64,000 nucleotides of DNA, from assembly GCA_966211335.1 (NCBI GenBank), contig CBIHNF010000001.1:730847-794846 (forward strand), written 5' to 3'. Below the pieces are notes generated by a model. It searched no databases. It was not told where the DNA came from and worked only from the letters and a program-made list of their open reading frames with translations. Source of the DNA: an uncultured Alphaproteobacteria bacterium (GTDB lineage: Bacteria > Pseudomonadota > Alphaproteobacteria > Micavibrionales > UBA2020). The position numbers and the translations under genes are program-made. Below are positions 2,829 to 42,299 of this stretch, piece by piece. Positions within the stretch are counted from its first letter, which is position 1, and the number at the start of each line of letters is the position of its first letter.

Positions 2829-3629
2829 ATGAAATGTATTAAAACCCAAAAAGGCTTCACACTCGTCGAATTGGCGATCGTGATGACCATCATCGGTCTT
2901 CTGATCGGTGGTATTCTGAAGGGCCAGGAACTGATGGACAACGCCCGCGTCTCCGCAACGATCGCGCAGACCAAGGGTATTGAAGCCGCCACGACCAGCT
3001 TCCGCGACAGCTATAACTCGATGCCGGGCGATATTCCGAACGCCTCCACGCGCGTTCCGTCCTGCAACGCGTCCTGCAACGTTGTTGCGGCCACGGCTGG
3101 CGACGGCATCATCGGTACGGTTGCCGGTTTCTCCGCCAACTATAACCCGCAGCTAACCACCGCCCTTGGCGGTACCGTGACGGATGAAACCCAGCTGTTC
3201 TGGACCGAACTGCTGCTCGCCAACCTGACGTCGGGCTATACCGATGCGCCGATCCGCGCAACGCCGCCCGCACCGTCGTGGGGCATCACCCAGCCCGCAG
3301 CAAAAATCGGCGGCGGCTATTACGTCGGCTACGCCGTCGGCCTGATCGGCCTTAACTCGCCGATGACGGCAGGTTCCGGCCCGTCCGGCACCGTGCTGGT
3401 GCTGGCGCAGAGCCCGACCGCAGCTATCACTGGTACGGCTGGTAACAACCCGCTCACCCCGGGTCGTGCTGCCCAGATCGACCGCAAGCTCGATGACGGC
3501 AAACCCGGTACCGGCTTCGTCCAGGCTTATGGCGTTGCCACCAAGTGCTGGCAGTCTGCCGCTATCGCAGCCTACGACGAATCCGATACCCAGAAAGATT
3601 GCGGCCTGATCCTGCGTATTCAGGGCTAA
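2829..3629 (+). CDS. type IV pilin (prepilin, copy A)
   Basis: Class III signal MKCIKTQKG|FTLVELAIVMTIIGLLIGGIL with Glu5. C-terminal Cys pair (KCW...KDCG). GGGGAG RBS. Terminator follows. Confidence 0.85.
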   Translation: MKCIKTQKGFTLVELAIVMTIIGLLIGGILKGQELMDNARVSATIAQTKGIEAATTSFRDSYNSMPGDIPNASTRVPSCNASCNVVAATAGDGIIGTVAGFSANYNPQLTTALGGTVTDETQLFWTELLLANLTSGYTDAPIRATPPAPSWGITQPAAKIGGGYYVGYAVGLIGLNSPMTAGSGPSGTVLVLAQSPTAAITGTAGNNPLTPGRAAQIDRKLDDGKPGTGFVQAYGVATKCWQSAAIAAYDESDTQKDCGLILRIQG

Positions 3630-3820: not shown

Positions 3821-4618
3821 ATGCAACGCACATTTCAAAAAGGCTTCACACTCGTCGAATTGGCGATCGTGATGACCATCATCGGTCTTCTGATCGGTGG
3901 TATTCTGAAGGGCCAGGAACTGATGGACAACGCCCGCGTCTCCGCAACGATCGCGCAGACCAAGGGTATTGAAGCCGCCACGACCAGCTTCCGCGACAGC
4001 TATAACTCGATGCCGGGCGATATTCCGAACGCCTCCACGCGCGTTCCGTCCTGCAACGCGTCCTGCAACGTTGTTGCGGCCACGGCTGGCGACGGCATCA
4101 TCGGTACGGTTGCCGGTTTCTCCGCCAACTATAACCCGCAGCTAACCACCGCCCTTGGCGGTACCGTGACGGATGAAACCCAGCTGTTCTGGACCGAACT
4201 GCTGCTCGCCAACCTGACGTCGGGCTATACCGATGCGCCGATCCGCGCAACGCCGCCCGCACCGTCGTGGGGCATCACCCAGCCCGCAGCAAAAATCGGC
4301 GGCGGCTATTACGTCGGCTACGCCGTCGGCCTGATCGGCCTTAACTCGCCGATGACGGCAGGTTCCGGCCCGTCCGGCACCGTGCTGGTGCTGGCGCAGA
4401 GCCCGACCGCAGCTATCACTGGTACGGCTGGTAACAACCCGCTCACCCCGGGTCGTGCTGCCCAGATCGACCGCAAGCTCGATGACGGCAAACCCGGTAC
4501 CGGCTTCGTCCAGGCTTATGGCGTTGCCACCAAGTGCTGGCAGTCTGCCGCTATCGCAGCCTACGACGAATCCGATACCCAGAAAGATTGCGGCCTGATC
4601 CTGCGTATTCAGGGTTAA
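3821..4618 (+). CDS. type IV pilin (prepilin, copy B; mature part identical to copy A)
   Basis: Leader MQRTFQKG|FTLVE... Residues after the cleavage site are identical to copy A. AAGGAA RBS. Terminator follows. Confidence 0.85.
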   Translation: MQRTFQKGFTLVELAIVMTIIGLLIGGILKGQELMDNARVSATIAQTKGIEAATTSFRDSYNSMPGDIPNASTRVPSCNASCNVVAATAGDGIIGTVAGFSANYNPQLTTALGGTVTDETQLFWTELLLANLTSGYTDAPIRATPPAPSWGITQPAAKIGGGYYVGYAVGLIGLNSPMTAGSGPSGTVLVLAQSPTAAITGTAGNNPLTPGRAAQIDRKLDDGKPGTGFVQAYGVATKCWQSAAIAAYDESDTQKDCGLILRIQG

Positions 4619-4665
4619 GCTTTCCACCAAGACAAAAGAAGAGCCCGGTGCGACAGCACCGGGCT
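3836..4665 (+). repeat. direct repeat unit 2 (830 bp) of tandem pilin duplication
   Basis: See unit 1. Identity starts at the codons for QKG|F and ends in the terminator stem. Confidence 0.9.
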
Positions 4666-4690: not shown

Positions 4691-5896
4691 TCAGGGGGAG
4701 CAGATGGCGTTGTTGGAGGCGTCGAAACCTGTAATGAACTTCCCTGTGGGGCAGGTGCGCGGGTTATAGAGCGTCGGGGCGAGGGCGGTGACACACTGCA
4801 GCGTGCCGCCGACAATGCCCTCCACAAGCCCGCCATTACAGTTCATGCCAAGCCCGCCGAAAATCTGCGGGTCAAAGCATTTGGTTCCGGAGGCATCGCA
4901 GACCTTGTCGGCATAGACGTTCTTCGCGCGCACTGTGCCGCGCACATCAAGATCGGCCGTCAGCGTGTTTGTATCCGTGCCAATGCCAACGCGGCCGCCT
5001 GTCTTGGTGTAGATAAGGCCCGTGCCCGCACTTGCCATCTTCCATTTGTCGGAGCTTCCTGAAATTTGGAAGATCATGAAGGGGTCGTCGTAATAAAAGG
5101 GGAGCGAGGCGGCGTCTGTGTTCAGCGAATAAAGGTTCGTATTGGCTGCACTCTGCGACAACAGGAACATAGAATCGCCGTTGCAGTTTTCCACGTCCCG
5201 CCCCGGCGGGGTGCAGGGCGCAACGAGCTTGCCGTTATAGTTGTAAGCGCCCTTGCCATTCTGGCCGGCAGAAAAAATAACGAAGGGAATGGCGTTGACC
5301 TGCAGGTTGCCGATTTTGGAGTTGCCGATCGTCCCATCTGCGGCGTTCTTGGAACTGATGGCGATAGCACCTATAAACTCGTTATAGTGCTTGTTGCCGC
5401 CCGAGGAGTCGGTGGAGCGCGTCATATATTCGGTAACCGTATAGGGGAGCTGGTTGTTCCAGCCGTCGAGAACGTCGGTATAAGCCGCGCCAAGCGTCAC
5501 ATAAGGCAGCGCGCCGGTTAACAAAGGGTCGGGTGTCGGCGCGGGATTGACGACGGGGCGCGCGCCGTTGATGCGGCAGACCTTGCCCGTACCGAAGCAG
5601 CCGAGGGCAGTGGTCGCCGGGCTGCATACCTCTTTGCCGGCGTTAGCGTTATCCGGCGGCAGCGAAGGATCTGCCGGGCAAGGCAGGCGGCCGTTTACGA
5701 ACAGGAACTGCTGCATTTTGTCAGTCGCAACCTGGAAAGCGGAGTCGTTGACGTTTTTAAGGCGCGCAATGCGGTATTGACGATAGCTTTGCAGGCAGGT
5801 GGCAACGGCCAGCGACACAATGCAAAGCAGGATCGCAACCTCTAGAAGCGAGAACCCGGCTTCGGACTTTTTCCTCAGTGCAAGCTTGCGGATCAT
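4691..5896 (-). CDS. large prepilin-type N-terminal domain protein (pilin-like adhesin paralogue 3, 401 aa)
   Basis: Start moved to ATG 5896, which has an AGGAGAG RBS 9 nt upstream. Leader MIRKLALRKKSEAG|FSLLEVAILL. Shares PCPA, SAGQNGKGAY, VGIGT..LDVRG and CPTGK..GF motifs with the two upstream genes. Confidence 0.8.
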   Translation of the reverse strand: MIRKLALRKKSEAGFSLLEVAILLCIVSLAVATCLQSYRQYRIARLKNVNDSAFQVATDKMQQFLFVNGRLPCPADPSLPPDNANAGKEVCSPATTALGCFGTGKVCRINGARPVVNPAPTPDPLLTGALPYVTLGAAYTDVLDGWNNQLPYTVTEYMTRSTDSSGGNKHYNEFIGAIAISSKNAADGTIGNSKIGNLQVNAIPFVIFSAGQNGKGAYNYNGKLVAPCTPPGRDVENCNGDSMFLLSQSAANTNLYSLNTDAASLPFYYDDPFMIFQISGSSDKWKMASAGTGLIYTKTGGRVGIGTDTNTLTADLDVRGTVRAKNVYADKVCDASGTKCFDPQIFGGLGMNCNGGLVEGIVGGTLQCVTALAPTLYNPRTCPTGKFITGFDASNNAICSP

Positions 5897-5944
5897 AATA
5901 ATGGCTCTCCTGAAATCATACACATAGATGAAGAGAAGGCACGG

Positions 5945-7114
5945 TCAAGGTAAAGCGCATTGAATGACGCCCGCACTGTTGAACCCGACGGCGTATTTCC
6001 CTGCCGGGCAGCTCTGCACGCCGGCAGGCGCGGGCAGCGGCACCAGTCCGCAAATGACTTTAGCTTTTTGCAGGCCGATAACGACGTTGCGATAGCCGGG
6101 CGGGGTTAAGGTTTGGGAACAAATGTTGCCGGCCGCAGGATCCGCAATGCTGCTCGGGTTCCAGCAGTTGCCACTGCCTGTATCATCACAGACGCTCGGC
6201 TGGGCGATCTGCGTGCCGGCAAGCGTGCCGGCGACGTCAAGTTTGGCCTGGGGGATGTCCACGCCAACGCCGACGCTGCCGCCGTTCACGTTATGAACAT
6301 CAGGCGTATTCGGATCGGAGGGGTTGGCGATAAAGTCCCACAGCCGCGTCAGCGACCGTTCCGTGTGGCGTACGTAGTCGTCGAAATAGGGCACTTGCGC
6401 GCGGATGCCTTGAATGAAGGTGCCGTTCAAGTTGCAGTTCTTGACCTCACTTGTACCGCCAGCAGCGCAGGGAACAGGGATTTTGCCATCCGCGGAATAG
6501 GCGCCGGCGTGGTTCTGGCCGTAGCCGATAATTACATAGTGGGTACTGGCGGCGGGGTTGGCCAAATCCTGGCCATTTTCCGTCTGGACGCCGATGGAAC
6601 CCCAAGCGTTATCGAAGCTCGCCTTGACCGTCAGCGTCTTGGAGACAGCATAGCCGAACTTGTAGCCGTAGGGATCGAGAGAGTCGCTGACGGTAACGTT
6701 CTTAATCGCGCCGGACGCACTCGCTTGCAGGGTCTTAAAAGGCACCGAACCCATGTAAACGGGGTCCATCGCCCCCACCTGCGGTGCGAGTGTCTTGCGC
6801 GCGCCCGGGAAGGTTGCCAGCGCACAATTCTCAACCCCGGCATTGGCGTCCGTGCTGCGCAGGGTCGGGTCCGCGGGGCAGGGGTAGCGGCCAAAGCCGT
6901 TGTAGAAGTCGGATATAGCTGTATCTATCTTTTCCATCGCCTTCAGCGTATCCGCGCGCTTCCCCGACGCGTTGTAAAGGTCATACAGCTTTACACCCGC
7001 GACAAGCATCAGGCTTGAAATAACCATCACCATGGCGACTTCAACCAGGGAAAAGCCGCCCCTGCTGCGGATACCTTTATGCACTCTCGTTCCCATCAGC
7101 TCTCTCCGGATCAT
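5945..7114 (-). CDS. large prepilin-type N-terminal domain protein (pilin-like adhesin paralogue 2, 389 aa)
   Basis: Start set at ATG 7114, in an ATGA overlap with the upstream stop (7111-7113). Leader MIRRELMGTRVHKGIRSRGG|FSLVEVAMV. The track's longer ORF (to 7282) would overlap the upstream gene. Confidence 0.75.
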   Translation of the reverse strand: MIRRELMGTRVHKGIRSRGGFSLVEVAMVMVISSLMLVAGVKLYDLYNASGKRADTLKAMEKIDTAISDFYNGFGRYPCPADPTLRSTDANAGVENCALATFPGARKTLAPQVGAMDPVYMGSVPFKTLQASASGAIKNVTVSDSLDPYGYKFGYAVSKTLTVKASFDNAWGSIGVQTENGQDLANPAASTHYVIIGYGQNHAGAYSADGKIPVPCAAGGTSEVKNCNLNGTFIQGIRAQVPYFDDYVRHTERSLTRLWDFIANPSDPNTPDVHNVNGGSVGVGVDIPQAKLDVAGTLAGTQIAQPSVCDDTGSGNCWNPSSIADPAAGNICSQTLTPPGYRNVVIGLQKAKVICGLVPLPAPAGVQSCPAGKYAVGFNSAGVIQCALP

Positions 7115-9588
7115 TCGCACGAGCAGGTACCGTACTGGTAGCCGCCACCGCCGGGAAGGGCGGCCGAACAGTTGGCCGTGTCGCTGTAGGTCGAGCAGGT
7201 GGTATTGGCTTGGATGGTGCGCGGCAGGGAACCACTGCCGCTGATGCTCTTCATCTTCCAGAAGTACAGGGTGATGAAGCATTCATTGTCATACGTTGTC
7301 CAGGCACCCCAAGTGCCGCTGCCGCAGTCATAGTCGCGGCGCTGGTTGTCCGCGCCCGTCATGCCGCTCGGGCACGTGGCGGCACGCGTTTCCGTTGCAC
7401 CCGCGCAGGTGCAATGGTCACCGCCGGGAATGGTCGCCCAAGCAGACCAGGAACCGCCGCTCCCGCCGCAGGTCCAGACCCGTTGCTGGCTCAGATAGCC
7501 TGAAAAAGCGGTGGGGCAGGAGGTGGTGCGGGTCTGCGGCGCCTGCGCGGCGCAGGTGCAGGTATTGGAAGGATATGTCGGCGTACCGAAGTATCCTGAT
7601 TTCAAATCCGCGTTGCAAAGCCAAGGCGTGACTTTGGTAATAGAGCCCGAGGTATAGGCCGAGCCGCAGGACAGGTATTCCGTTTTCGTATCCGGCACGC
7701 AGGTGCAAAGGTTGATGTCGTTGGTATAGCTATCGGTATCCGCGGGGCATGTATGCGTATGATGCCGCGTATGCGTGCCTGTAAAGCCGAAGGAAGGGCA
7801 ACCCAAGTTTTCATCCGTATCGATGGCGCTGCAGCTGCAAATGCCGCTTTCCCCGATTTTGCCCCACTGCCCATCGCTCTGGCACTGCCAGGTCTGGCCG
7901 TAGCTGATGCCCGAAACCGGGGTTGTGCCCACAATGGCACCCGGCAGCGCGCTAGGCAGCGTGAAGGTGTCGGGCACGCAAAGTGCGACCGTTCGCGTCG
8001 CGCATTTCAGCACGCTGGAGCAATGAATGGTGCCGTCAGCATTGATCGCGTCCATGATAGAGCCACTCGGGCAGGCGACGTTGACGGCGCTTGCCGTCGT
8101 GCAGTCGATGGCGTCATGCGAGAAGCCGACCGCAAAAGGCGGTTTCAGACCGCCGCAATTGTACTTGGGAGAGGCCGGCGACGCGCCCTTGGCGATTTCC
8201 GCGTTTGTGATGCAGGCGGTGCCGTCGTTCCGACAGACGTAATCGCCGACGGTGGTCGAAGTGTCGGTTTTGATGGTGCCGCGGGCATCCAGCGTCTGGG
8301 TGGGGCTCGACGTCTTGACGCCGATCTTGCCGGTGGATTCAGCATCCACCAGGTCGCGGATGTCATGGCCCGCGGGATCCGCGATGCGCCACAGCGGCGT
8401 ATCGGACGAGGCGTAGAATTTGATGACATCGTCATAGTGCGTGGCTTCGTTGGTCGCCTTGGTCGTCGAGCTGTAATTGGTGATTTTGAAAATTGCCTTG
8501 TTGCCGCCAGCGCAGTTGACGCCGTCCTTGGCGACGGCCGAGCACGGAACGCCGATTTTGCCGAAGTGCGTATAAGCGCCGGCACCGTCTTCGCCGCTGC
8601 TCATGATCACGAAGTGAACCTGACCGGAGCCGTTGTCCAGCTTGCGATAATCACCAGAGCCCGCCGTCGTTTCAACGTCGTCGATAACCGAAATGCCACC
8701 GCCGTTGCGGGTATAATCCGCGGCCGTGCGGGCCAGGGGCTCCGTCACCGCGTAGCGGATGCGGTTGTTATAGCCGTCATCCGCATAGCTTTCATCCATG
8801 CCAAGCGTGCGGAACGGCACGCCACCGACTCGCACACGCTGGAATGTGCCTGCGACCGGGCCCGTAGGCGGGCCGTAAAGCGCCGAGACGCGCATTCTCT
8901 TGAAGGTGCCGGAACACGGGTCGCCAAAGTTGGCGTTGGTCGCCGCGAAAGTGGCTGAGTTCAGCCCTAATACAATCCCCTCCACCACGGTTTTACTCGA
9001 CGTCGAATTGCACGCCCCAACGTTATAAGAGCCGCATATGCCGCTTGGCGTGCCGTAGGAAGCGAAAGTGATGCTCTGAATGACGTTACCCGGCGGTGCT
9101 GTCAGCGTAATATTGGTGTTTTCATCGCCTTCCCCGCAAAGAAGGTTCGAGCCCCCTACTGCCGTCTGGCTTTCCTGAATGTAGACACCGCTGCCAGTAT
9201 GAACGCCGGCTGCATTATAACTGGGCTGGAAGGTGCCGACCGCCTGGCCCGTAGCAGTACAGTCACCGGAAACCCCGAACTCCGGCTTATCGGGCGGAAC
9301 ATCGATGGGGGCGGGGCAGGGGTAATGGCCGTTACGCACGAGGTAATCGTTCAAGGCCTGAACCACCTGGCCGGTATTGGTGGTAGTGGTTATCTGTCTC
9401 TGGGTGCGGCTATAAATATTGTACGCCGAAATCAGCGATGCCATCACCAAGCTGAGGACGACGAGAACAATCGCGGTTTCAATCAGCGTATATCCTGCTT
9501 GGTGCCATTTACCCGTATTCAAGCGCGCAGGCGAAGTTGAATGCTGCTTAGACGAGCGACCAAAAAGGACCACGGGAATTCTCCACAC
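7111..9588 (-). CDS. giant prepilin-type protein with lectin-like domain and Cys-rich C-terminal modules (825 aa)
   Basis: ...KWHQAG|YTLIETAIVLVVLSL class III signal. The track start is GTG 9588. An in-frame TTG at 9522 would give a typical 10-aa leader (MNTGKWHQAG). GC3-rich codons throughout. Confidence 0.75.
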   Translation of the reverse strand: MWRIPVVLFGRSSKQHSTSPARLNTGKWHQAGYTLIETAIVLVVLSLVMASLISAYNIYSRTQRQITTTTNTGQVVQALNDYLVRNGHYPCPAPIDVPPDKPEFGVSGDCTATGQAVGTFQPSYNAAGVHTGSGVYIQESQTAVGGSNLLCGEGDENTNITLTAPPGNVIQSITFASYGTPSGICGSYNVGACNSTSSKTVVEGIVLGLNSATFAATNANFGDPCSGTFKRMRVSALYGPPTGPVAGTFQRVRVGGVPFRTLGMDESYADDGYNNRIRYAVTEPLARTAADYTRNGGGISVIDDVETTAGSGDYRKLDNGSGQVHFVIMSSGEDGAGAYTHFGKIGVPCSAVAKDGVNCAGGNKAIFKITNYSSTTKATNEATHYDDVIKFYASSDTPLWRIADPAGHDIRDLVDAESTGKIGVKTSSPTQTLDARGTIKTDTSTTVGDYVCRNDGTACITNAEIAKGASPASPKYNCGGLKPPFAVGFSHDAIDCTTASAVNVACPSGSIMDAINADGTIHCSSVLKCATRTVALCVPDTFTLPSALPGAIVGTTPVSGISYGQTWQCQSDGQWGKIGESGICSCSAIDTDENLGCPSFGFTGTHTRHHTHTCPADTDSYTNDINLCTCVPDTKTEYLSCGSAYTSGSITKVTPWLCNADLKSGYFGTPTYPSNTCTCAAQAPQTRTTSCPTAFSGYLSQQRVWTCGGSGGSWSAWATIPGGDHCTCAGATETRAATCPSGMTGADNQRRDYDCGSGTWGAWTTYDNECFITLYFWKMKSISGSGSLPRTIQANTTCSTYSDTANCSAALPGGGGYQYGTCSCE
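8872..9150 (-). other. SUEL/rhamnose-binding-lectin-like domain inside the 825-aa pilin-like protein (aa 147-239)
   Basis: The motifs FASYGTPSGIC ... FGDPCSGTFKRMRVSALY follow Gal_Lectin hallmark spacing. Confidence 0.6.
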
Positions 9589-9745
9589 AACTTGAAACTA
9601 CCACGCAAAAAGCGAGCAGGCCTCAATACACCAATATTAACTCTACAGAGCAAAGGTAAAGAAGCCCTTAAACCCGAACGGGTCGCTCCATCTCATTGAA
9701 TTGTATATTCAAAAGAGTATCTCCGCAACGCCTTGCGGAATCGGG

Positions 9746-10888
9746 TCAGGCGTTCAAAAACCAACCCGAGAGAATCCGGAAATATATTTCCTTAAGCTTT
9801 GTCATGTCATCGACGGCAACGCGCTCATCCGTTTTATGCATGGTCTGGCCGACGATGCCGAATTCGACGACAGGGCAGTGGTTGCGGATAAAGCGCGCGT
9901 CGGAGGTGCCGCCGGTGGTGCTGAGTTCGGCCTCCCGGCCCGTGACGTCCTTGATGGCCTTTTGCACCATCTCCGAGAGTTTGCCGGGCGGGGTGTAGAA
10001 GCTTTCGCCGCCGGTGCGGGTCGTCAGGGAATAGGGAATTTTTTGCGCGTCCAGCGTCTCGCGCAGCTTCTTCTCAAGGCTCGCGCCCGTATAGCTGTCG
10101 TTGAAGCGCACGTTGAACACGGCCTTTGCCGCCCGAGGAATGATATTTTCGGCGGTGTTGCCGATGTCGATATTTACAACTTCAAGATTGGACGGCTGGA
10201 AATGGGCGGTGCCCTTGTCCAGCTCCAGCCCGTCAATCGCCTGCAGCAGCGTCATCAGCTTCGGGATCGGGTTATCGGCGAGATGCGGATAGGCCACATG
10301 GCCCTGTACGCCTTCAACGCTTAAATACCCGGTAAAGGTGCCCCTGCGACCGATTTTCATCATGTCACCCAGCTGCTCGCGCGATGTCGGTTCGCCGACG
10401 ATACAGAAATCGATTTTTTCCCCGCGCGCGGCCAGCCAGTCCAGCACCTTTTTCGTGCCATTGACGGAGGGGCCTTCTTCATCGCCTGTGATGAGGAAGC
10501 TGATGGAGCCTTTGGGGTTCTGCGCCTTGATGTAATCAATCGCGGCGGCGGCGAAGCAGGCGATGGGGCCTTTCATATCGGCCGCGCCGCGCCCGCAGAC
10601 AAAGCCGTCCTTGATCTCGCCGCCGAAAGGGTCGAAGCTCCAGCTGGCTTCCGCGCCGACCGGCACCACATCCGTATGGCCCGCAAAGCAGATATGCGGC
10701 GCGGCTTTCCCCCAGCGGGCATAAAGGTTTTCAACGTCCGGCGTATCGACGTCGGAGAAGGTGAGGCGGTGGCATTCAAAGCCGTTTTCTTCCAGCAGCT
10801 TTTGCAGCAGCGTGATCGCGCCGCCCTCGGCCGGCGTCACGCTGGGGCAGCGCAGGAGATCCTGCAGGAGTTTTACAGGATCGGTCAT
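9746..10888 (-). CDS. dapE: succinyl-diaminopimelate desuccinylase
   Basis: 380 aa, M20 peptidase. LLRCPSVTPAEGGA and ICFAGHTDVVP motifs. Adjacent to dapD. Confidence 0.9.
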   Translation of the reverse strand: MTDPVKLLQDLLRCPSVTPAEGGAITLLQKLLEENGFECHRLTFSDVDTPDVENLYARWGKAAPHICFAGHTDVVPVGAEASWSFDPFGGEIKDGFVCGRGAADMKGPIACFAAAAIDYIKAQNPKGSISFLITGDEEGPSVNGTKKVLDWLAARGEKIDFCIVGEPTSREQLGDMMKIGRRGTFTGYLSVEGVQGHVAYPHLADNPIPKLMTLLQAIDGLELDKGTAHFQPSNLEVVNIDIGNTAENIIPRAAKAVFNVRFNDSYTGASLEKKLRETLDAQKIPYSLTTRTGGESFYTPPGKLSEMVQKAIKDVTGREAELSTTGGTSDARFIRNHCPVVEFGIVGQTMHKTDERVAVDDMTKLKEIYFRILSGWFLNA

Positions 10889-10893
10889 GCGGA

Positions 10894-11739
10894 TTAATCC
10901 CTGAGCAATTCGTTGATGCCGGTTTTGGAGCGCGTCTGCGCATCGACGCGTTTCACGATGACGGCGCAGTAAAGCCCCGGGCCGGGGGTGCCGTCCGGCA
11001 ACGGTTTGCCGGGCGTGGTGCCGGCGACGACGACGGAATAGGCGGGCACGCGGCCCGTGAAAACCTCGCCTGTCGCGCGGTCGATGATTTTGGTGGAAGC
11101 GCCAAGGTAGACGCCCATGGACAGCACCGCGCCTTCTTCAATGATAACGCCTTCGGCTACTTCCGAGCGCGCACCGATAAAGCAGTTGTCTTCAATAATG
11201 ACGGGGTTCGCCTGCAGGGGTTCCAAAACGCCCCCAATGCCGACGCCGCCCGAGATATGGCAGTTCTTGCCAACTTGTGCGCAGGAGCCGATGGTGACCC
11301 AGGTGTCGACCATGGTGCCTTCGCCGACATAAGCGCCGACGTTGACGAAGGATGGCATCAGCACCGCTTTCGGGGCAATAAACGCAGAGGGGCGCACGAC
11401 AGCGCCCGGCACCGCGCGGTAGCCGCCGGCCTTGAAGGCAGCTTCATCCATGCCCTCGAACTTCGAGCCCATTTTGTCGTACCAGGTGGAGCCTGCAACG
11501 CCGCCCTTCACAGGCGCGTTATCGTTGAAGCGGAAAGAAAGGAGAATGGCTTTCTTCAGCCACTGGTGCGTGACCCAAGCACCGTCAATTTTTTCCGAGA
11601 CGCGCAGCGTGCCGGCGCCCAAGAGCGCCATGATATCCTCGACCGTCTTCTTGCCGATCAGCTTCATCTTGTCGGTCAGCTGTTCGCGGCCGTCCCAGAC
11701 GTTGTTGATGGCGTTTTCAAGATCGGCGTAGTCGGACAT
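10894..11739 (-). CDS. dapD: 2,3,4,5-tetrahydropyridine-2,6-dicarboxylate N-succinyltransferase
   Basis: 281 aa. Hexapeptide-repeat C-terminal half. Typical DapD length and dapE synteny. Confidence 0.9.
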
Positions 11740-11753
11740 GATATGGCGGCCTT

Positions 11754-12422
11754 TCAGGCAGGTTTTTGGATATTGGCGAGGAACCAGTCGGGCAGTTTTT
11801 CCGCCTTCTGGTGGACGTGCGGGTGGTTGAGGTCTTCCGGCGCGACGTTCTTGCCGTGGAACCAGACCGTCGACATGCCGAGCTCATGCGCAGGGCGCAG
11901 ATTGATTTCAAGGTCCTCGAACATGCAGGCCTTTGCCGGTTCCACGTTGTGGCGCTTCAAAAACGTGTGATAGGTGTCGATCTTCGGTTTCGGCCAGTAA
12001 GCGGCGTCTTCAATCGCGAAGATATCTTCGAAATGGTGGCGGATGCCAAGGTGCTGCGTCATTGCTTCCGCAAAGGCCTTTGGCGCATTGGTGAAAACGA
12101 AGCGGCGGCCGGGCAGGTGGGCGAGCGATTCTTGCGTCACCTTGCAGGGCGGCACGACGGAGATGTCGATGTCGTGCACATGCTCGAGAAAATGATAGGG
12201 GTCGATGCCGTGTTCGGTCATGAGGCCGCGCAGCGTCGTGCCATAGGTTTTGTAGTAGTGCTTGCGCAGGCGCCCTGCTTCTTCGCGCTCCACCTTCAGG
12301 TGGTTTTGCACGAAATCGGTCATGCGGTTGCCGACTTCGACGAAGACATGGCTCTCCGCGTCATAGAGCGTGTTGTCGAGGTCAAAGACCCAAGCGTTGG
12401 TGCGGGAAAGAAGGCCGGTCAT
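11754..12422 (-). CDS. HAD-superfamily hydrolase (pyrimidine 5'-nucleotidase-like)
   Basis: Motif I is [10 protein letters not shown]. Start set at ATG 12422, because the track extension would overlap recR (ends 12433). Confidence 0.75.
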
Positions 12423-12432
12423 GATGGTGAGC

Positions 12433-13026
12433 TTAGACAGCCTTTCTGGATTTGAGCGCGGTCGCAAGGGTGCCTTCGTCAAGGTAATCGATCTGGCCGC
12501 CGATGGGCACGCCATGCGCCAGCTGCGTGACTTTCACGCCCGTGGCGGCAAGGCAGTCGGCGATGTAATGCGCCGTCGTCTGCCCGTCGATGGTGGCGTT
12601 AAGGGCGAGGATGACTTCGCGCGCGCCCCGCGTCTTCACGCGTTCGACAAGATGGGGGATGGACAGGTCTTCAGGGCCGATACCATCCAGCGCCGAAAGC
12701 GTGCCGCCAAGGACGTGGTAATAACCCTTAAAGCCGCCCGTCTTCTCAACCGCCCAGAGGTCCGAGACGTCTTCGACGACGCAGAAGACAGCGGTATCGC
12801 GCGCAGCGCTAGAGCAGATGGCGCAAGGCTTTTGCGTATCAAGGCTGTGGCATTCGGGGCATTCTTCAATCACTTCGGCCGCGCGGGCAAGCGCCTGCGC
12901 CAGCGGCAGCATCAGGCTCTCCCGGCTTTTCAGCAGGTGCAGCGCGGCTCTGCGGCCGGAGCGCGGGCCCATGCCCGGCAGGCGGGCGATGAGCTTCATC
13001 AGATGTTCGATTTCGGTCCCGATCAT
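12433..13026 (-). CDS. recR: recombination protein RecR
   Basis: 197 aa. [21 protein letters not shown] HhH motif, [16 protein letters not shown] zinc finger, Toprim region. Confidence 0.92.
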
Positions 13027-13089
13027 GGGCTTGAGTATAGGCCGCCAAAACGCCTTTTTCCAGAGAATTAGGGGAAAAGAGAAGGCGCG

Positions 13090-13806
13090 TTAGCCGCCGA
13101 AAGCATCACTGAAAATAAAGTCTTTTTCCGCGCCTTGCGCCAGCAGCAGCGGCAGGGTCGCCTCCACCATGGCGGCGGGGCCAGCCATGTAGATATTGAA
13201 CCCAGTCAGGTCGGGCATATCCGCCGTGACTGCCGCACCGATATACCCGCTGCGCCGCCCGGCGGCTTCGCCATGGGCGATCACGGGAATATAACGGAAG
13301 GCGGGCTTGCCAGCGGCAAGGTCATTGAAGAAAGCATCAAGGTAGAGATGCGCCTCATCGCGCACGCCCCAGTAAAGCGTGACACGCACATCGCCGGTTT
13401 TATGCGCCAGCTGCGCCTCGATCACGGCTTTCAGCGGCGCAATGCCGACGCCGCCGGCCAGCGCCAGCAGCGGACGTGTGGACGGACGCCAGTAATGGTC
13501 GCCAAAAGGCGCTTCAAGCGTGACAGCATCGCCTTTTTTCAAGCTGGTAAAGACGGCATTGGAAAAACCGCGGTGGCTGTTCTTGATGTGGAATTCCAAA
13601 ACGGGCTGGTGCGGCGCGGAAGCGATAGAAAACGCGCGCGGCTCCAGACCCTCAAGGCTCAAGTGTGCATATTGCCCGGCCAGAAAATCGAGCGCCGCGC
13701 CGCCCGGCAGCGCAAGCCGCAGGATGCGCGTATCGGCGGCGATATCCTCGATCGATGCGACGTGGGCGATATGCGTTGAGGCGGCGGGCAAGCGGGCATC
13801 CTGCAA
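13090..13806 (-). CDS. FNR-like FAD/NAD(P)H oxidoreductase
   Basis: RAFSIAS (RxYS-type FAD site) and LALAGGVGIAPL (NAD(P)-binding) motifs. 238 aa. Confidence 0.75.
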   Translation of the reverse strand: MQDARLPAASTHIAHVASIEDIAADTRILRLALPGGAALDFLAGQYAHLSLEGLEPRAFSIASAPHQPVLEFHIKNSHRGFSNAVFTSLKKGDAVTLEAPFGDHYWRPSTRPLLALAGGVGIAPLKAVIEAQLAHKTGDVRVTLYWGVRDEAHLYLDAFFNDLAAGKPAFRYIPVIAHGEAAGRRSGYIGAAVTADMPDLTGFNIYMAGPAAMVEATLPLLLAQGAEKDFIFSDAFGG

Positions 13807-13890
13807 GGGTGAAAAAGGGGCTGAAAAATGCTTCGGGCCTGTCTCCCTGAAATGGGGGACGGGCCCGAAAAAGTCAAGAATTAAAGAGAT

Positions 13891-15330
13891 TTAGGCCGGA
13901 GCTACCGCATTTTTGGCGGGTTTCGCTTCCTTCGGCACAATGGCGGCCGGCGTTTCTTTCGCAGCAGCGATTGTCACCGCTGGCAGCTTCAAACCGTCAT
14001 TCGCCTTGTCGGCGGTGCGCAGGAAGCCTTCGATCTCGGCGTATTTTTTCGGCTCTGACGGGGTTGTGTCGTCTTTGCCAAGGGAGGAGCGGATCATGCC
14101 GGCCGAGGTTTCATCGACGGCAATCGCGCCGCTCTTGATACCATCACGCAGGGCGGTGATGCCTTTTTGCAGTTCGGGGTCGCCTTTGGCAGCCTCGATC
14201 TTCTTGTCGAGGAAGCCTTCGAGACCTTCAAGCGCTTTCGGCGCTTCGGTCTTGGCGGTTTCAGCAGGCGGCGCGTCGGCAGTGGTTTCCTGCTTTGGCG
14301 CGTCCTGTTTCGGCGCTTCCGTCTCGGGTTTCTTGTCGGTCGCGGCGAATTTGCTGTTCGACAGGTCAATCGGGCCCTGCTCGGCGGCAGAGGCGCCAAC
14401 GACCAGCTGGTCAGCGGTCGCCGAACTCTTCTGCGCTTCAAACTGGGCGAGTTTTTCGTAAACGGCGCTACCTTCGGGCGGCGCAAAGTTTGCAACGCCA
14501 AGGCCCTGCTTTTTCGCTTCCAGCCACATCATTTCTTTTTGCGCATCGTTACCGTAGACGTTGACCGCTTTCCAGCCGCGCTGGCGGGCTGCCGCCATGA
14601 CGCCATGGGCGTCGACTTCGTCAAAATTCTTGGAGCGGTTCGGCATGCCGATGAATTCAGCGCCGCCGAGGTTGGCGTGCCATTCAATCGCGTGGTTGTT
14701 CTGCAGTTCGAAAACGAGGCCGCCTTTGTGCGGATAAACCTTGCCTTCCGGCCCCAGCGCACGCGCCAGTTCCGCGTCCAGCTGGAAGTCGGGATCCGGC
14801 CAGACTTCACGCATTTTTGCGAGGGAGTCGGGGTGCACAGCGAGGTTGGTCGCAAAGCGCGACTGCTGCAGCTGCTCGTTGTCGATCGGCGTATCGGCGG
14901 TCGGCGCGGTTTGCTGTTGCGGCTGCGCAGGCTTGTTTGCATTCGCTTCCGCTTCTTTTTTCTTGCGGATTTCCTCTTCCGTTTCGGCAACGGGGGCGGC
15001 GGGCGCATCGCCGTCTTTCTTTTCTGCTTTTTCTTCAGCCGGCGGCGCGGTGTTCAGCGGCGCATCGGCCTTTTTCTCTTCCACCGGCGCCGTCGCATTC
15101 GCGGCGGGCGGCGTCACGGGGTCGGCTTTCTTTTCTTCCGCGGTCGCGGTGGCGGTCGAGCCTTCGGCCGAGGGTGCGGTCGCCTTCAGGTCGACCGCAG
15201 GGGTGACTTCGTCGGCATTGCGGACGCCCTGAACCGGGTCTTCCTTCGCTGAGGTGAATTTCGTGTCGGGAGGGGTCACCGGTGCGTCATTTTTGGCGGT
15301 GTCGGCGGGTTGCTTCACATCATCAGCCAT
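13891..15330 (-). CDS. hypothetical protein, Ala/Pro/Glu/Lys-rich disordered arms around a folded core
   Basis: Longest of many overlapping ORFs. GC3-rich codons. GGGATGAGG upstream of the ATG. EEKKAD-type low-complexity repeats. Confidence 0.6.
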   Translation of the reverse strand: MADDVKQPADTAKNDAPVTPPDTKFTSAKEDPVQGVRNADEVTPAVDLKATAPSAEGSTATATAEEKKADPVTPPAANATAPVEEKKADAPLNTAPPAEEKAEKKDGDAPAAPVAETEEEIRKKKEAEANANKPAQPQQQTAPTADTPIDNEQLQQSRFATNLAVHPDSLAKMREVWPDPDFQLDAELARALGPEGKVYPHKGGLVFELQNNHAIEWHANLGGAEFIGMPNRSKNFDEVDAHGVMAAARQRGWKAVNVYGNDAQKEMMWLEAKKQGLGVANFAPPEGSAVYEKLAQFEAQKSSATADQLVVGASAAEQGPIDLSNSKFAATDKKPETEAPKQDAPKQETTADAPPAETAKTEAPKALEGLEGFLDKKIEAAKGDPELQKGITALRDGIKSGAIAVDETSAGMIRSSLGKDDTTPSEPKKYAEIEGFLRTADKANDGLKLPAVTIAAAKETPAAIVPKEAKPAKNAVAPA

Positions 15331-25665: not shown

Positions 25666-27396
25666 TCAAGGCGATGGCGTCCGGCGGAGACGCGATGCGC
25701 GCGGCAGGGCGGGCAGTGCTTCGATGCCGAAGGTTTTTGCTGTCTCCGCATCGATGCCGCGCAGCTTTTCGGCGGACTCCAGGCGGAGGGTTTTCAAGGC
25801 ATCGGTTTCCGTCGGTACGGCACCCTGCGTTGCGAGGAAGTTCATCACTTCCGCCAGCGGCTTGAGGCCCGCGAAATCCGCCTTGAAGAAATTATAGCCT
25901 GCGGCGGATTGCAGCAAGGCTGTCGGCGCATCGGCGACCTCTTGCGTATAGGGCACGGCGTGCTCATCGTGCAGATAGCGCATGAAGTCTACCGCCTCTG
26001 CACCTGAAACGTTGCGTTCCATCGGAAATCCCCTACCGTAAAAAACCGGCGTCAGCAGCTTGATCATCAGCGAAGCATCGGGCAGCGCACCCGCCTCGAT
26101 CAGGATTTTCGCAAGGTCAAGGTTGCCGTTCTCGACCGCCATCTGCACGGGCGTGCCGGCGGGGCCTTTGGAGGTGAAATCATAACCATTGTCGATCAGG
26201 TAGTGCAGCATGGCGGGATAACCGTCTTCAGCGCCCATGGCAGCCGCACGTTGGCGTCGGCCGCTCGCGACAACCGCATGGACGAAGGAGCGGAGGTTAT
26301 TCCCCGCCGTTTGCGTTTTGTCGAGCCCTTGCGACTCCAGCCATTTAAAGGCGTCAAGATCGGCGCGGCAGGCGGCGTTGCCGCCGGCGCTATTATCGAA
26401 TTTTTTTGCGTTCACATCGGGTGCATAGGGGCGCAGGACTTTCAGCGTCTCCAGCGTCGGCCCCTGCGGGTCATGGTCGCCGGCATCGACAAAATGCGAG
26501 GCGTCGGGCCGTGCGCCCAGCTCAATCAGGCGGGGGATAAGGTCGTAAACGTTATGCAGCGATGCCTGACGCAGCGTCATATCGCTGTGGATTTTGTCGT
26601 TGTCTTTTGCCTGTGCAGCCACGGCTTCGAACAACTCTCGGCGCTGTTCGGGTGTAAAGGGCGCGGCGTTGTTTTTGTGGCCGATCTCTTCATGGCGCGA
26701 CATCAGCACCCAGTCGAGCGGCAGGAACTTGCCGGGATATTCATCGTAGACATGGGCGGGGTTCATGCCGCTGGTCACGAAGTCCAGCACCTTTTCAAAC
26801 GGTGCTGATTTGATGATCTCGAGGAAAACAGCCGGGCGGTAGTCGACGGTTTCAATCAACCTCTGCAGCACAGGTGCAGCCTGCGCGGCGGGGATGCGGA
26901 AAGATGAATCAAGGTGATTTGCCAGTTTTCCCTCGACGTCTGCCATGGTTGCGGCGGGGCCATTCTGTATCATGGCAAGGCTGATACCGCCGGCTCCGGA
27001 ATTTTCCTCCGCCTCGACGAAGTAGCCGGCGTCGGTCGCCGATACCTTGAAGTTCATCAGTTGCTTGCCGTCCTGCAGCAGCTGCACCTTCGCGCCCGTG
27101 ACGTTGAAGTCCCAGACATCGTCAGGAACATCTTCCATGATTTGCTCGGCGCTCAGCTTTAGCGGCACTTTCATTTTTTCCAGCGCGAAGCTGAGCTGGT
27201 AGACCTCGTTGACGAAGTTCGCCAGTAGATCTGTCTTTAGCGCTTTCGGCGTCATTCCCGCCCGCTCGGCGTCACGTTCTGGCAACGTGGGTGTAATGGG
27301 GTCGGCTTTCACGCCTTCCGCCAGCAATTCTTTGGCCGTATCCGCATCGGGAATACGCGCGGCAATTTTCTCGAACAACGCGGAGAAGACAGTCAT
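25666..27396 (-). CDS. ankyrin-repeat protein (576 aa)
   Basis: ANK-type repeats in the C-terminal half (e.g. TPVQMAVENGNLDLAKILIEAGALPD, YPAMLHYLIDNGYDF). Confidence 0.7.
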   Translation of the reverse strand: MTVFSALFEKIAARIPDADTAKELLAEGVKADPITPTLPERDAERAGMTPKALKTDLLANFVNEVYQLSFALEKMKVPLKLSAEQIMEDVPDDVWDFNVTGAKVQLLQDGKQLMNFKVSATDAGYFVEAEENSGAGGISLAMIQNGPAATMADVEGKLANHLDSSFRIPAAQAAPVLQRLIETVDYRPAVFLEIIKSAPFEKVLDFVTSGMNPAHVYDEYPGKFLPLDWVLMSRHEEIGHKNNAAPFTPEQRRELFEAVAAQAKDNDKIHSDMTLRQASLHNVYDLIPRLIELGARPDASHFVDAGDHDPQGPTLETLKVLRPYAPDVNAKKFDNSAGGNAACRADLDAFKWLESQGLDKTQTAGNNLRSFVHAVVASGRRQRAAAMGAEDGYPAMLHYLIDNGYDFTSKGPAGTPVQMAVENGNLDLAKILIEAGALPDASLMIKLLTPVFYGRGFPMERNVSGAEAVDFMRYLHDEHAVPYTQEVADAPTALLQSAAGYNFFKADFAGLKPLAEVMNFLATQGAVPTETDALKTLRLESAEKLRGIDAETAKTFGIEALPALPRASRLRRTPSP

Positions 27397-35237: not shown

Positions 35238-36440
35238 ATGACCTCCCGCAGCTTCTACAAAAATCTATCCGCAACGCCGCCGAGCGGGCTGGTTGACCGT
35301 GCGTCTTACCGCGCCGCGCCGGATGACTGGTATATTTTGGTTGCGGATATCGTCGGCTCGACCAAGGCGATTGCGGCGGGGAAATATAAAGACGTTAATA
35401 TGGTCTCGGCCTCCGCCATTACGGCGGTCATCAATGCGGCCGATAAATCGGAAATCGCCTATATTTTCGGCGGCGACGGCGCAACCCTCCTCGTGCCGCC
35501 GGATGTGCTGCTGGAAGTGGCGCAGGCGCTGCATGGCACAAGGGTTATGGCGCGGGATGCCTTCCAGCTGGAAATGCGCGTCGGCGCGGTGAAGTTGGCA
35601 GACCTTGCCGCCAAAGGCGCGCCCGTGCGTGTTGCGAAAACCGAAACCGCACCTGCGATTTATCAGGCGGCCCTTGCAGGGGAGGGCGTGACGCTGGCGG
35701 AAAAGCTCATCAAGGATAAAGAACATGGCAGCCGCTACGACATCACGCAATTGTTCAGCTCAGAACAACTGACGGCGAAGGAAGCGAACTTTAACGGCCT
35801 TGAATGCCGCTGGCAGCCGCTGCACAGCCGCCACGGTGCCGATGTATCTCTTATCATCGCGGCGCGGGGGACAGATGAAGCCGCAAATGCCGCTCTATAT
35901 GCGGAGGTGCTGGCAAAGGTTGGCGATATCTGCGGCCATGCGGATGACTGGAAACCCGCCCATGCCGATAACCTAAATGTGAGCGCCACCGCCGGCGGCA
36001 TCGCCGGGGAAACCCGCGTGCGCACCCATGGCATGGGCAGCTTCGCGCGCCTTAAATATATCGTGAATGTCCGGCTGCTGTGCTGGACAGGCATTCTCTG
36101 CCTTGCCACCGGCAAAAAGGCCGGCAACTTCGACGGCGCGAAGTACCGTGACGACACCGCCCGCCATACCGACTTCATCAAGTTTGATAACGCCCTGCGC
36201 CTTGTCATGGATGTGACCAGGGAACAGCAGAAAAATTTGACTGCGTATCTTGAAGACCTGCGCAGCGCCGGAAAAATTTTCTATGGTCTCCACGCCGCAC
36301 CCGCCGCGCTGATGACCTGTTTGGTGTTCGACTACGGCCACGACCACTTCCACTTCGTTGACGGCGCCGACGGTGGCTATGCCTTGGCCGCTCTCCAGCT
36401 TAAGAGCCAGATCAGGGAAGCTTCTGACCTGCCAATTTAA
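35238..36440 (+). CDS. DUF3095-like protein (nucleotidyl-cyclase-like N-terminal motif)
   Basis: ATG 35238 has an AAAGGGGA RBS. N-terminal WYILVADIVGSTKAIAAGKYKDVN resembles the metal-binding strand of class III cyclases. Confidence 0.55.
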   Translation: MTSRSFYKNLSATPPSGLVDRASYRAAPDDWYILVADIVGSTKAIAAGKYKDVNMVSASAITAVINAADKSEIAYIFGGDGATLLVPPDVLLEVAQALHGTRVMARDAFQLEMRVGAVKLADLAAKGAPVRVAKTETAPAIYQAALAGEGVTLAEKLIKDKEHGSRYDITQLFSSEQLTAKEANFNGLECRWQPLHSRHGADVSLIIAARGTDEAANAALYAEVLAKVGDICGHADDWKPAHADNLNVSATAGGIAGETRVRTHGMGSFARLKYIVNVRLLCWTGILCLATGKKAGNFDGAKYRDDTARHTDFIKFDNALRLVMDVTREQQKNLTAYLEDLRSAGKIFYGLHAAPAALMTCLVFDYGHDHFHFVDGADGGYALAALQLKSQIREASDLPI

Positions 36441-37350
36441 AATAGACGCTTTTTACAGTAAGGTATTCTTATGAAGTTAGTTTTAAGAAAATACATACGA
36501 CAGCTTGCTGTTTTACTGGTTATTTTCATGTTGGCTTTCGGGTTTTATTATAGCCGGCCGCAGAAAATGGGTAGCAATCTTACGACATCCATTAATGGTA
36601 GAGAAATAGAGCCATATTTAACGAAGGGCTTTTCAACAGCCAAAGATGACTGGATAGGATTAGGGTACACTAGTGCATTAATTTCAGAGTATTTAAAAAT
36701 CGCGTACGACGGTGGAAAAATAAGCGCAGATGATTTAGAGGCGTTGGACTTCCAAAACGGAAATCCATTAATCGGCTGGAAGCGGATTAATCAAAATACT
36801 CCGGGCGATGAAAGAACAGAATACATTTTCCCAAAAGGTTCATTCGAGGCGGTGAAAATTAAAAGTCAGGTTACGGCTTTTAGTGAAAATGGTGACGGAG
36901 AGGTTAAAATAAATCTGCGCCACGTCGCGCCCAACGAAGACGTTCTGTACTTGATTTTAACGAATGTCAGTGAATCTCATTGTCGCCCTAGAATTAGTGG
37001 TGAGACTGAGAAAAAATTTACAATCGCCGCTGACAATCATCAAGTTATAGATGAGCCGGGTTATATGTACGGATGTGGAAAAACTTTTGACAATCATAAT
37101 TACATTTTCTTACCGATAATTTCTAGAATTTATAACAACGATTCTAAATCGTTGGCATTCAAGAAAGAAGGGTATGCCTTTGCCATGAACTGCGCGCTTG
37201 GCGTGAGGGAGCCGCCGGTAAACTTTGTAAACAATGTCGATAAGTTTTTGATCGACATTCTTGTTAAAATTTTAAATTTTTAGAGTTTAGATCATGAAAT
37301 ATTACAGCCGAATAACCCTAGCTTCCTTTATTTCTATATTCTTTTTTTCT
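36441..37350. other. AT-rich compositional island
   Basis: Abrupt switch to AT-rich sequence and rare codons (AGA, ATA, TTA). GC-rich composition resumes inside the next gene at about 37350. Confidence 0.7.
36471..37283 (+). CDS. hypothetical membrane-anchored protein, atypical composition
   Basis: N-terminal TM helix LAVLLVIFMLAFGFYY. AT-rich codon usage unlike the neighbouring genes. Confidence 0.6.
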   Translation: MKLVLRKYIRQLAVLLVIFMLAFGFYYSRPQKMGSNLTTSINGREIEPYLTKGFSTAKDDWIGLGYTSALISEYLKIAYDGGKISADDLEALDFQNGNPLIGWKRINQNTPGDERTEYIFPKGSFEAVKIKSQVTAFSENGDGEVKINLRHVAPNEDVLYLILTNVSESHCRPRISGETEKKFTIAADNHQVIDEPGYMYGCGKTFDNHNYIFLPIISRIYNNDSKSLAFKKEGYAFAMNCALGVREPPVNFVNNVDKFLIDILVKILNF

Positions 37351-39861: not shown

Positions 39862-40142
39862 TATTCTTTCTCCTTCACGGCAAGGGCGACGGTGCTGTCG
39901 GGGGAGGTGTGCTTTAAAATCTCGTCCATTACATTGCGGATCTGCGCAAAGGCGGCATCCAGGCTTTCGGCGTCGCCCTTCAGGGTTTTGTCTTCATCCT
40001 TCAGTACCATCTTCCAGGCGACGTCGCCGCTATACAGCATGGAAAGGCCGGACGTGAGGAAATGGTCAATCTGCTCCTGCTTCTGGCGCAGGGGGCCGGG
40101 GCGCAAAATTTCCGCGACTTTTTTCATTGTGTTCTTTGTCAT
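39861..40142 (-). CDS. small hypothetical protein (93 aa), translationally coupled to the 547-aa gene
   Basis: ATG 40142 has a GAGAAGGA RBS. The track's N-terminal extension lacks an RBS. Confidence 0.55.
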   Translation of the reverse strand: MTKNTMKKVAEILRPGPLRQKQEQIDHFLTSGLSMLYSGDVAWKMVLKDEDKTLKGDAESLDAAFAQIRNVMDEILKHTSPDSTVALAVKEKE

Positions 40143-40316: not shown

Positions 40317-40338
40317 TTTGGAGAAACTGTTGTGGTGC

Positions 40339-42287: not shown

Positions 42288-42299
42288 GGAGCTACGCTG

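Follow-up and report, generated by a model that had tools for sequence, protein, structure and literature searches.

A conserved triplet of paralogous pilin-fibre hybrids in Micavibrio-type predatory bacteria, a candidate prey-binding pilus tip

Introduction

Pilins that carry a binding or fibre-forming part are known from several systems. In CofB of enterotoxigenic Escherichia coli (CFA/III pilus) and TcpB of Vibrio cholerae (toxin-coregulated pilus), the pilin domain precedes beta-rich C-terminal domains that form trimers, and the minor pilin CofB makes up a trimeric initiator complex at the pilus tip, with a lectin-fold domain. GspI-GspJ-GspK forms a tip heterotrimer, and modular pilins, i.e., an N-terminal pilin motif combined with at least one module that is not specific to pilus biology (Raynaud 2021), are widespread. 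The three genes described here (A, B and C, together the trio) lie at 4691-9588 on the minus strand of a 64,000-nucleotide stretch of DNA from an uncultured alphaproteobacterium of the Micavibrionales (GenBank assembly GCA_966211335.1, contig CBIHNF010000001.1, positions 730,847 to 794,846). This whole stretch is hereafter the window, and coordinates refer to it unless another locus is named.

That A, B and C are modular minor pilins carrying a fibre-type motif can hardly be doubted. It is proposed, with a probability of about 0.5, that the trio is a conserved 1:1:1 set of such pilins which would form a heterotrimeric, prey-glycan-binding fibre at the tip of a pilus. A 2025 review treats the junction between prey and predator as unexplained at the molecular level in epibiotic predators, and notes only their type IV pilus genes; carbohydrate receptors have been implicated in the interaction of Micavibrio with its prey (Wang 2011).

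The likeness to CofB lies in the order of the parts, in the features of CofB that are proposed here for the trio (tip location, initiation of assembly, lectin-fold domain) and in the top structural match of the pilin domain of B, which is CofA, the cognate type IVb major pilin. However, CofB is the product of one gene and acts as a homotrimer, whereas the trio consists of three ancient paralogues kept 1:1:1; the machinery of the window's clade departs from a classical type IVb operon in its PilT-type ATPases and in a pilin whose leader is short and whose residue +1 is F. Among the PDB profile and Foldseek matches there is no CofB or TcpB chain, nor any match to the beta-repeat or H-type lectin domains. 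The CofB/TcpB architecture is thus only analogous to that of the trio.

With the mosaic adhesive trimer (MAT) fibres of Bdellovibrio bacteriovorus and with S74-type phage tail fibres or spikes, the trio has a capping-loop motif in common, and relatives of its pilin family end in Peptidase_S74. MAT proteins also come from a bacterial predator, and their lectin-type tips bind prey glycans. On the contrary, a MAT protein has a Sec signal, a conserved N-terminal beta-rich domain of ~130 aa and many copies of the motif, whereas the window proteins have a pilin N-terminus, one copy, no S74 and, in its place, a Cys-knot module.

Among modular type IV pilins, PilB and PilC of Streptococcus sanguinis likewise have an N-terminal pilin module with grafted modules such as lectins and are predicted to be exposed at the tip. 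The known cases are single genes with modules recognisable by Pfam, whereas the trio is a fixed paralogous triplet, and most of the sequence added to its pilin part has no model. An IPR012902-Peptidase_S74 architecture stands, uncharacterised, among the modular pilins (Raynaud 2021). The trio answers to their definition: A has a SUEL lectin, and B and C have the fibre motif and a Cys module that bears no database signature. An earlier note on this DNA had seen direct pilin fusions in the three proteins, a kind that had already been described as modular pilins. GspI-GspJ-GspK and PilV/W/X-FimU are also heteromeric minor-pilin tip complexes of low abundance, but their subunits are not close paralogues, are small except GspK, and have no fibre motif. 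Finally, PilV of the IncI thin pili (shufflon) is a pilin with a C-terminal receptor-binding part. A shufflon PilV can be rejected, for A, B and C have no match to Shufflon_N (PF04917) at E <= 1; moreover the architecture of the trio is fixed across genomes, which argues against cassette exchange, and a PilV-like pattern of carrier and variable fibre is seen only in a distant relative (locus L054, see below).

The trio belongs to none of the compared systems beyond the category of modular type IV pilin. What is new in it is that pilin-fibre hybrids form a fixed set of three paralogues, in a lineage of predators, and that a new Cys-rich domain is present.

Three paralogous genes with a common scaffold

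The three genes and their parts, all on the minus strand, are as follows (a slash marks the prepilin cleavage site; open reading frame is abbreviated ORF).

7111-9588, minus: gene A (group b, the large member), 825 aa from a GTG start, from the ORF list and the N_methyl and SUEL_Lectin matches
9424-9495, minus: A, class III signal, cleavage site G32/Y33 with E at +5, and alpha1N
8884-9102, minus: A, SUEL-type galactoside/rhamnose-binding lectin domain, aa 163-235 (Pfam PF02140)
8272-8331, minus: A, fibre capping-loop motif GKIGVKTSSPTQTLDARGTI, the degenerate group-b version
8017-8235, minus: A, Cys module common to B and C (C452...C523, including CPSGS...C)
7114-8016, minus: A, Cys-rich C-terminal extension, aa 525-825 (jackhmmer, alignment, AlphaFold2)
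5945-7114, minus: gene B (group a), 389 aa, with prepilin signal, pilin domain, fibre motif and Cys module
6986-7057, minus: B, class III signal, site G20/F21 with E at +5, and alpha1N
6221-6280, minus: B, fibre capping-loop motif GSVGVGVDIPQAKLDVAGTL, in the region covered by the profile match to Bd2133 and other MAT fibres
5954-6190, minus: B, Cys module (C309, C317, C332, C355, C369, C386)
4691-5896, minus: gene C (group c), 401 aa if read from the ATG at 5896, which is preceded by an AGGAG ribosome-binding site
5786-5857, minus: C, class III signal site G/FSLLE and alpha1N
4931-4996, minus: C, fibre capping-loop motif GRVGIGTDTNTLTADLDVRGTV
4697-4900, minus: C, Cys module (C342...C408)

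The genes are found where the earlier note had placed them, with the lengths that it had given; the ORF of C reaches a GTG at 5923 (4691-5923), which would make it 410 aa. The stop of A and the start of B overlap as ATGA at 7111-7114 (reverse complement ...TGC GAA TGA / ATG ATC...), again as the note had read them.

A, B and C are paralogues, far past chance: BLASTP gives 1e-32 for B/C, 4e-23 for A/C and 6e-14 for A/B, with 26-30% identity. The signal G/[FY][ST]L[LIV]E with a hydrophobic helix is present in all three, and so is the four-part scaffold that the note had picked out beyond it, i.e., (i) [YL]PCPA, (ii) [FY]VI..G...GAY...GK...PC, (iii) G.[VI]G[VI]...LD[VA].GT[LIV] and (iv) a C-terminal CP.G...G...C. 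The C-terminal parts had been said to diverge. This does not hold for B and C, which are colinear up to their C-termini; it holds for A, which departs from both by its extension of 300 aa (aa 525-825) and also by an insertion of ~145 aa (~aa 100-245; 8854-9291). The layout of A is therefore prepilin signal, pilin domain with lectin insertion, fibre motif, Cys module and Cys-rich extension. Within the trio of the window, divergence is uniform along the length.

It must be added that the public gene call of A (P0032 in NCBI/Logan/ENA, on a 2.2-Mb contig) has 777 aa: it begins 48 codons further on, at M49 within the alpha1 helix, so that the annotated product lacks the prepilin signal, which is hidden by at least this one public call. 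B also has a public record (P0001, ENA), of 383 aa, which falls six codons short of the 389-aa ORF.

Pilin signal and pilin fold

The class III signal, the basis on which the proteins had been called pilin-anchored, is present in A, B and C. A and B match N_methyl (Pfam) or IV_pilin_GFxxxE (TIGR02532) at cut-off; C has only weak N-terminal pilin matches in Pfam and NCBIfam, yet its G/FSLLE site is plain. G at -1, F/Y/L at +1 and E/D at +5 are retained in nearly all of the 134 family members, in all three groups. The leaders of the family have ~14 aa, and the mature proteins ~12 Cys in groups a and c and ~40 Cys in group b. A gene for a PilD-type prepilin peptidase is linked to the trio in locus L007, and another is found in the pilin-side cluster of Micavibrio aeruginosavorus.

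The fold of the pilin domain is seen in the predicted model of B (AlphaFold2): aa 20-250 are modelled with a predicted local distance difference test (pLDDT) of ~90, as a long helix (23-74) packed on a beta domain. Its top match in the PDB (Foldseek) is the type IVb pilin CofA (9iuf, prob 0.99, E 0.029), after which come other pilins and GspG-type pseudopilins. By signal (A, B and C) and by predicted fold (B), the proteins are thus type IV pilins. The family is marked by the RYPCPA motif and shows GspG-like features (LDxWG..YAV; SHG.NG.GAY); neither Pfam nor NCBIfam has a model for it past the N-terminal motif.

The GspG-like features, together with the labels of relatives ('PulG', 'type II secretion system protein'), are among the points in favour of another explanation, according to which the trio is a priming or initiation complex only (equivalent to GspH/I/J/K or FimU-PilVWX), of a pilus or of a pseudopilus like that of a type II secretion system (T2SS) that exports hydrolases, and does not bind prey directly. 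Initiator complexes that are trimeric recur as a general theme, the low expression of the presumed orthologues in M. aeruginosavorus is typical of minor pilins, and the annotation of that organism has no GspC, GspG, GspH or GspK. Nevertheless, no NCBIfam pseudopilin equivalog comes near its cut-off (GspG 21.1 bits vs 88.85, GspH 15.5 vs 80, GspI 15.5 vs 44.35), and what these models match is the N-terminal helix of the trio proteins only. The identity as T2SS pseudopilins is rejected on this basis. A role limited to priming is improbable, also in view of the lectins and the retraction ATPases described below; furthermore at least one of these genomes has a second cluster, of shorter pilin-domain relatives, that could serve as the core primer set (L043; in M. 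aeruginosavorus probably GMV_901-905).

The L043 cluster (6862-11275 of that locus, in the same Micavibrio genome as locus L017, OY762938.1) consists of four tandem RYPCPA relatives that have no fibre motif and end in unrelated Cys-containing tails, and it may be a core minor-pilin set. In GMV_901-905, its probable counterpart in strain ARL-13 of M. aeruginosavorus, two of the genes code for prepilins and show attack-phase expression (GEI 20-60).

Three ancient groups, one of each per locus

The family is rare and unnamed, with 31 matches among 5.8 billion clusters, labelled at most as quoted above. The genome scan gave 48 loci, almost all in Micavibrio or in unclassified alphaproteobacterial metagenome-assembled genomes (MAGs); the few 'Bdellovibrionales' labels among them trace to the placement of Micavibrio by NCBI. 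Hidden Markov model searches of six-frame ORFs, with reciprocal-best-hit clustering, separate the members into three groups: group a (~420 aa; B of the window), group b (~670-980 aa; A) and group c (~400-460 aa; C). One member of each is found in nearly every complete locus, and all three are present in 39 loci, the window included. Identity within each group across genomes is only ~30%. In a neighbour-joining tree the clade purities are 0.99, 1.0 and 0.99, with bootstrap support that is strong for b and moderate for a and c. The order of the genes varies (c-b-a, a-c-b, b-a-c, c-a-b). By this clustering, the trio is a set of three ancient orthologous groups and not a set of exchangeable variants.

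The earlier note had expected exchangeable receptor-binding ends, as in PilV. This part of it is contradicted by the one-of-each orthology, on the basis of which a family of variant cassettes is rejected, by the uniform divergence, and by the C-terminal module, which is conserved and not variable across relatives. The spacings of its anchor residues are nearly equal in all three groups.

The same results bear on a further explanation, the proposal of the earlier note recast after CofB, in which the three proteins would be alternative tip adhesins, each paralogue homotrimerising at the tip of its own pilus, with three receptor specificities. It is favoured by CofB itself, a homotrimeric tip minor pilin, and by the relatives that bear Peptidase_S74, which are expected to form homotrimers. 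However, it predicts gain and loss by lineage, whereas strict one-of-each is found in the 39 loci in spite of the low identity within groups. Moreover, groups a and c share the same short architecture, without an obvious distinct binding module, and the divergence within the trio is not that of a constant carrier with a variable tip. Alternative adhesins are accordingly unlikely.

A fibre capping-loop motif and relatives with Peptidase_S74

Motif iii had been compared with a motif of phage tail-fibre proteins, and the profile searches bear this out. A profile of 26 family members, run against the PDB, matches the Bdellovibrio MAT fibre Bd2133 (8ond) with E 2.8e-9, in three repeats and exactly over motif iii; it also matches the MAT structures 8oml, 8ol4, 8ojn (Bd3182) and 8on4 and, weakly, MyRF. 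In these proteins the motif V-G-G/N-pi-x-x-P-x-x-x-L forms the capping loop at the edges of intertwined trimeric beta-helices, it is present also in the S74-containing MyRF, and the beta-helix of Bd3182 resembles phage S74 fibres (Caulton 2024). As judged by these profile matches, motif iii is the capping-loop repeat of intertwined trimeric beta-helix fibres of the MAT and S74 tail-fibre type.

A profile of the C-terminal module matches 102,241 proteins among 1.84 billion representatives. The best matches are giants of 2-8 thousand residues with 20-57 copies of the motif stretch, and 3/5 of the sampled giants end in Peptidase_S74. Each window protein has one copy, which is degenerate in group b, and Peptidase_S74 (PF13884) is not found by Pfam in A, B or C. 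The scan of A, B and C against PHROGs gave nothing significant, and the model of B has no match below E 0.05 among the viral structures of BFVD, where S74 and tail-fibre entries stand among the noise only.

The connection with S74 is made by relatives. P0297 and P0298, from the profile search, share the RYPCPA-type pilin domain and have the motif at the corresponding position; Peptidase_S74 with SDxxxK comes after it. Locus L054 has, at its positions 8001-14349, three tandem pilin-fibre-Peptidase_S74 genes (687, 622 and 763 aa), each with a prepilin signal, several copies of the motif, S74 and then a predicted C-terminal transmembrane segment. The first two of these paralogues are 85% identical through the pilin domain and the first motif, and ~23% identical beyond. 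L054 is thus a constant carrier with exchangeable fibres, of the kind that the earlier note had imagined, in a lineage other than that of the window; such near-identical carriers with divergent fibres are what the explanation by alternative adhesins would lead one to expect.

Other relatives of the pilin domain bear RCC1 repeats or a LamG domain. In a 'Rickettsiales' MAG (L048, 9995-13744), a RYPCPA-family pilin of 1250 aa has 115 Cys in short repeats and ends in a Laminin_G_3 (concanavalin-like lectin) domain. The contig of L054 is crowded with ankyrin-repeat genes.

Lectin and Cys-rich extension of the large member

The SUEL lectin of A scores above the gathering cut-off of Pfam (PF02140, E 3.1e-11, 43.9 bits vs 31.4), and an adhesin role, which had been put forward before the lectin was found, is thereby plausible. 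In the model, it matches the Gal_lectin domains of rice beta-galactosidase (5iaz, prob 1.00) and of latrophilin (2jx9, prob 0.99) by Foldseek. The lectin motifs of the YG..DPC.GT.K type are present as ASYGTP and GDPCSGTFKRMRV; the sugar binding is predicted only. The domain shares 49-58% identity with lectin domains in surface proteins of Bacteroidota, which points to its acquisition as a module, and in group b it is seen only in the nearest relatives of the window. In locus L003 (11280-12878), a group-c paralogue has a SUEL lectin of its own (aa 219-288, E 1.2e-9) at a site that differs from that in A; this suggests that the same type of lectin has been grafted repeatedly onto the complex.

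The Cys-rich extension has four repeats (~45-50 aa each) of the pattern CxC..C..C, in some of which W..W is also seen. Its predicted structure is all-beta (AlphaFold2 pLDDT 65-88 for aa 560-825), and it is found in all group-b orthologues, with a varying number of repeats (jackhmmer). No relative was found in Pfam or among PDB sequences. Apart from the lectin, Foldseek of the model of A against the PDB gives meaningless beta-propeller-like matches to the extension (TM-score 0.04-0.1, rmsd ~30 Å), and the group-b alignment profile matches the N-terminal helix only. The repeats (aa 584-770; CxC-x10-C-x16-C, W..W, R; e.g., GSWSAW...CTC...ETR..C) loosely recall thrombospondin type 1 repeats; TSP_1 of Pfam does not match them.

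These modules bear on both explanations given above. That the lectin occurs in only one paralogue of the window would suit alternative adhesins. Lectin insertions in two different paralogues and a Cys-rich domain of 300 aa would be odd, on the contrary, for a purely structural primer.

Pilus genes and neighbourhood

The trio converges on two pilin genes of the plus strand. The features to the left of it are as follows.

11-406 (cut by the window edge) and 408-1211, plus: two genes without Pfam match
1241-2332, plus: AraC-family regulator with a hydrophobic N-terminal half (HTH_18, E 2.4e-22)
2829-3629, plus: pilin gene copy 1, 266 aa, leader MKCIKTQKG/FTLVE (N_methyl, E 1.4e-7)
3821-4618, plus: pilin gene copy 2, 265 aa, leader MQRTFQKG
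4642-4665, minus: terminator-like hairpin just 3' of C, a 10-bp stem followed by a T run (consensus match only)

The hairpin separates the convergent trio from the second pilin gene. The two pilin copies are 100% identical in DNA over 779 nt (2847-3625 = 3836-4614), so that the mature proteins are identical while the leaders differ; this points to a recent duplication or gene conversion. Two copies are also found in L002 and L033. Orthologues of the window pilin adjoin the trio in L001, L002, L003, L006, L007 and L033.

No pilus assembly gene is found by Pfam on the 20 large ORFs of the window, as had been noticed before. In L007, PilD is followed in turn by two PilT-like ATPases, a secretin, two unnamed genes, AraC, the pilin and the trio, and L002 has the same genes in mirror order within the stretch covered. 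The same pilin-side cluster recurs in M. aeruginosavorus ARL-13 (GMV_1530-1544), with PilT, PilD, PilC-like and PilB-like genes. Between secretin and AraC, the relatives have two unnamed genes of ~270 aa (L002, L007; GMV_1532/1533 in M. aeruginosavorus), to which the genes at 11-406 and 408-1211 probably correspond by position and size. Since the first genes of the window probably correspond to those that follow the secretin in relatives, the assembly cluster should lie immediately left of the window. The AraC gene is directly upstream of the pilin genes; in M. aeruginosavorus (GMV_1531) and in L002 and L007, its counterpart likewise separates the pilus machinery from the pilin gene, and its product is a candidate regulator of the pilin.

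The two PilT-type retraction ATPases mark the linked cluster as that of a predicted retractile pilus rather than of a T2SS, and this stands also against the explanation by a primer of a secretion pseudopilus.

In most genomes, however, the trio stands alone among housekeeping genes and unlinked to pilus genes. This would suit the view that it functions outside any filament, the prepilin signal being an inner-membrane anchor or an export route for periplasmic or surface fibres; the extra transmembrane segment after S74 in the relatives of L054 could be read in the same way. Against it, the trio directly adjoins the pilin and the pilus machinery in the clade of the window, and the glutamate at +5 (E5) and the full alpha1 helix, both needed for packing in a filament, are conserved. 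A function outside filaments is very improbable.

A putative heterotrimeric pilus tip

In the proposed mechanism, A, B and C, joined by their alpha1 helices, would be the three subunits with which a retractile pilus begins; the pilus itself would be built from the adjacent pilin of 265 aa. At its tip, a short heterotrimeric fibre with a pseudo-threefold axis would result from the association of their C-terminal modules. The large subunit would bind glycans of the prey surface by its lectin and its Cys-rich domain, and retraction driven by PilT would draw predator and prey together. A heterotrimer at the tip is suggested because (i) there are precedents in CofB (a trimeric tip initiator with a lectin fold) and in GspI-GspJ-GspK (a tip heterotrimer); (ii) trimerisation is obligatory for the S74-type relatives; (iii) redundant alternative adhesins would not stay one-of-each at ~30% identity.

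A more specific history can be put forward only tentatively, namely that the three pilins derive from a triplicated fusion of a pilin with a tail fibre of S74 type, and that their 1:1:1 heterotrimeric, tail-fibre-like stalk caps a retractile pilus as the prey-capture hook (lectin and new Cys-rich domain) of epibiotic Micavibrio-type predators.

Several observations weigh against the heterotrimeric tip. In the models of A and B, which are of single chains, the motif region has a pLDDT of 45-70, which is compatible with dependence on an oligomer and is no proof of it. A full MAT-type beta-helix domain is unlikely in the window proteins, because each has a single copy of the motif and that of group b is degenerate. 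The segment lengths of the C-terminal module across the 39 loci, with their nearly equal spacings, give no convincing covariation between paralogues. Homotrimers of each paralogue are possible, as they are expected for the S74-type relatives. E5 is retained in all three groups; the tip-most subunits of the GspK type in T2SS differ in not keeping it. To these must be added the isolation of the trio from pilus genes in most genomes and the weak transcription, in both phases, of its presumed orthologues GMV_742-744. The latter are three consecutive 'prepilin-type' genes of ARL-13 (391, 692 and 377 aa), which fit the c-b-a pattern and are probably the trio of M. aeruginosavorus by size and annotation only.

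With this assignment in a culturable predator, the trio is a concrete, conserved and testable candidate for prey recognition, the best so far for the way in which these predators seize prey, and it links a retractile pilus to modules of tail-fibre and lectin type. If the heterotrimeric tip is true, the CofB-type trimeric tip would be extended to a heterotrimer of paralogues, and pilins and phage-type trimeric fibres would have been fused repeatedly.

Other features of the window

Three further regions of the window are recorded here. At 13891-15330 (minus), between the genes of an FAD-oxidoreductase and of LolA, a protein of 479 aa rich in Ala, Pro, Lys and Glu has an LPD7 domain (large polyvalent protein-associated domain 7). 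The stretch from 36000 to 45500 may be an integrated mobile element: the GC content falls to 0.49 at 36-38 kb, a tRNA is found at 40779-40850, and a protein of 870 aa at 42829-45441 has a TraG-D_C coupling-protein domain. At 25666-27396 (minus) there is an ankyrin-repeat protein of 576 aa, which is unusual for a free-living bacterium.

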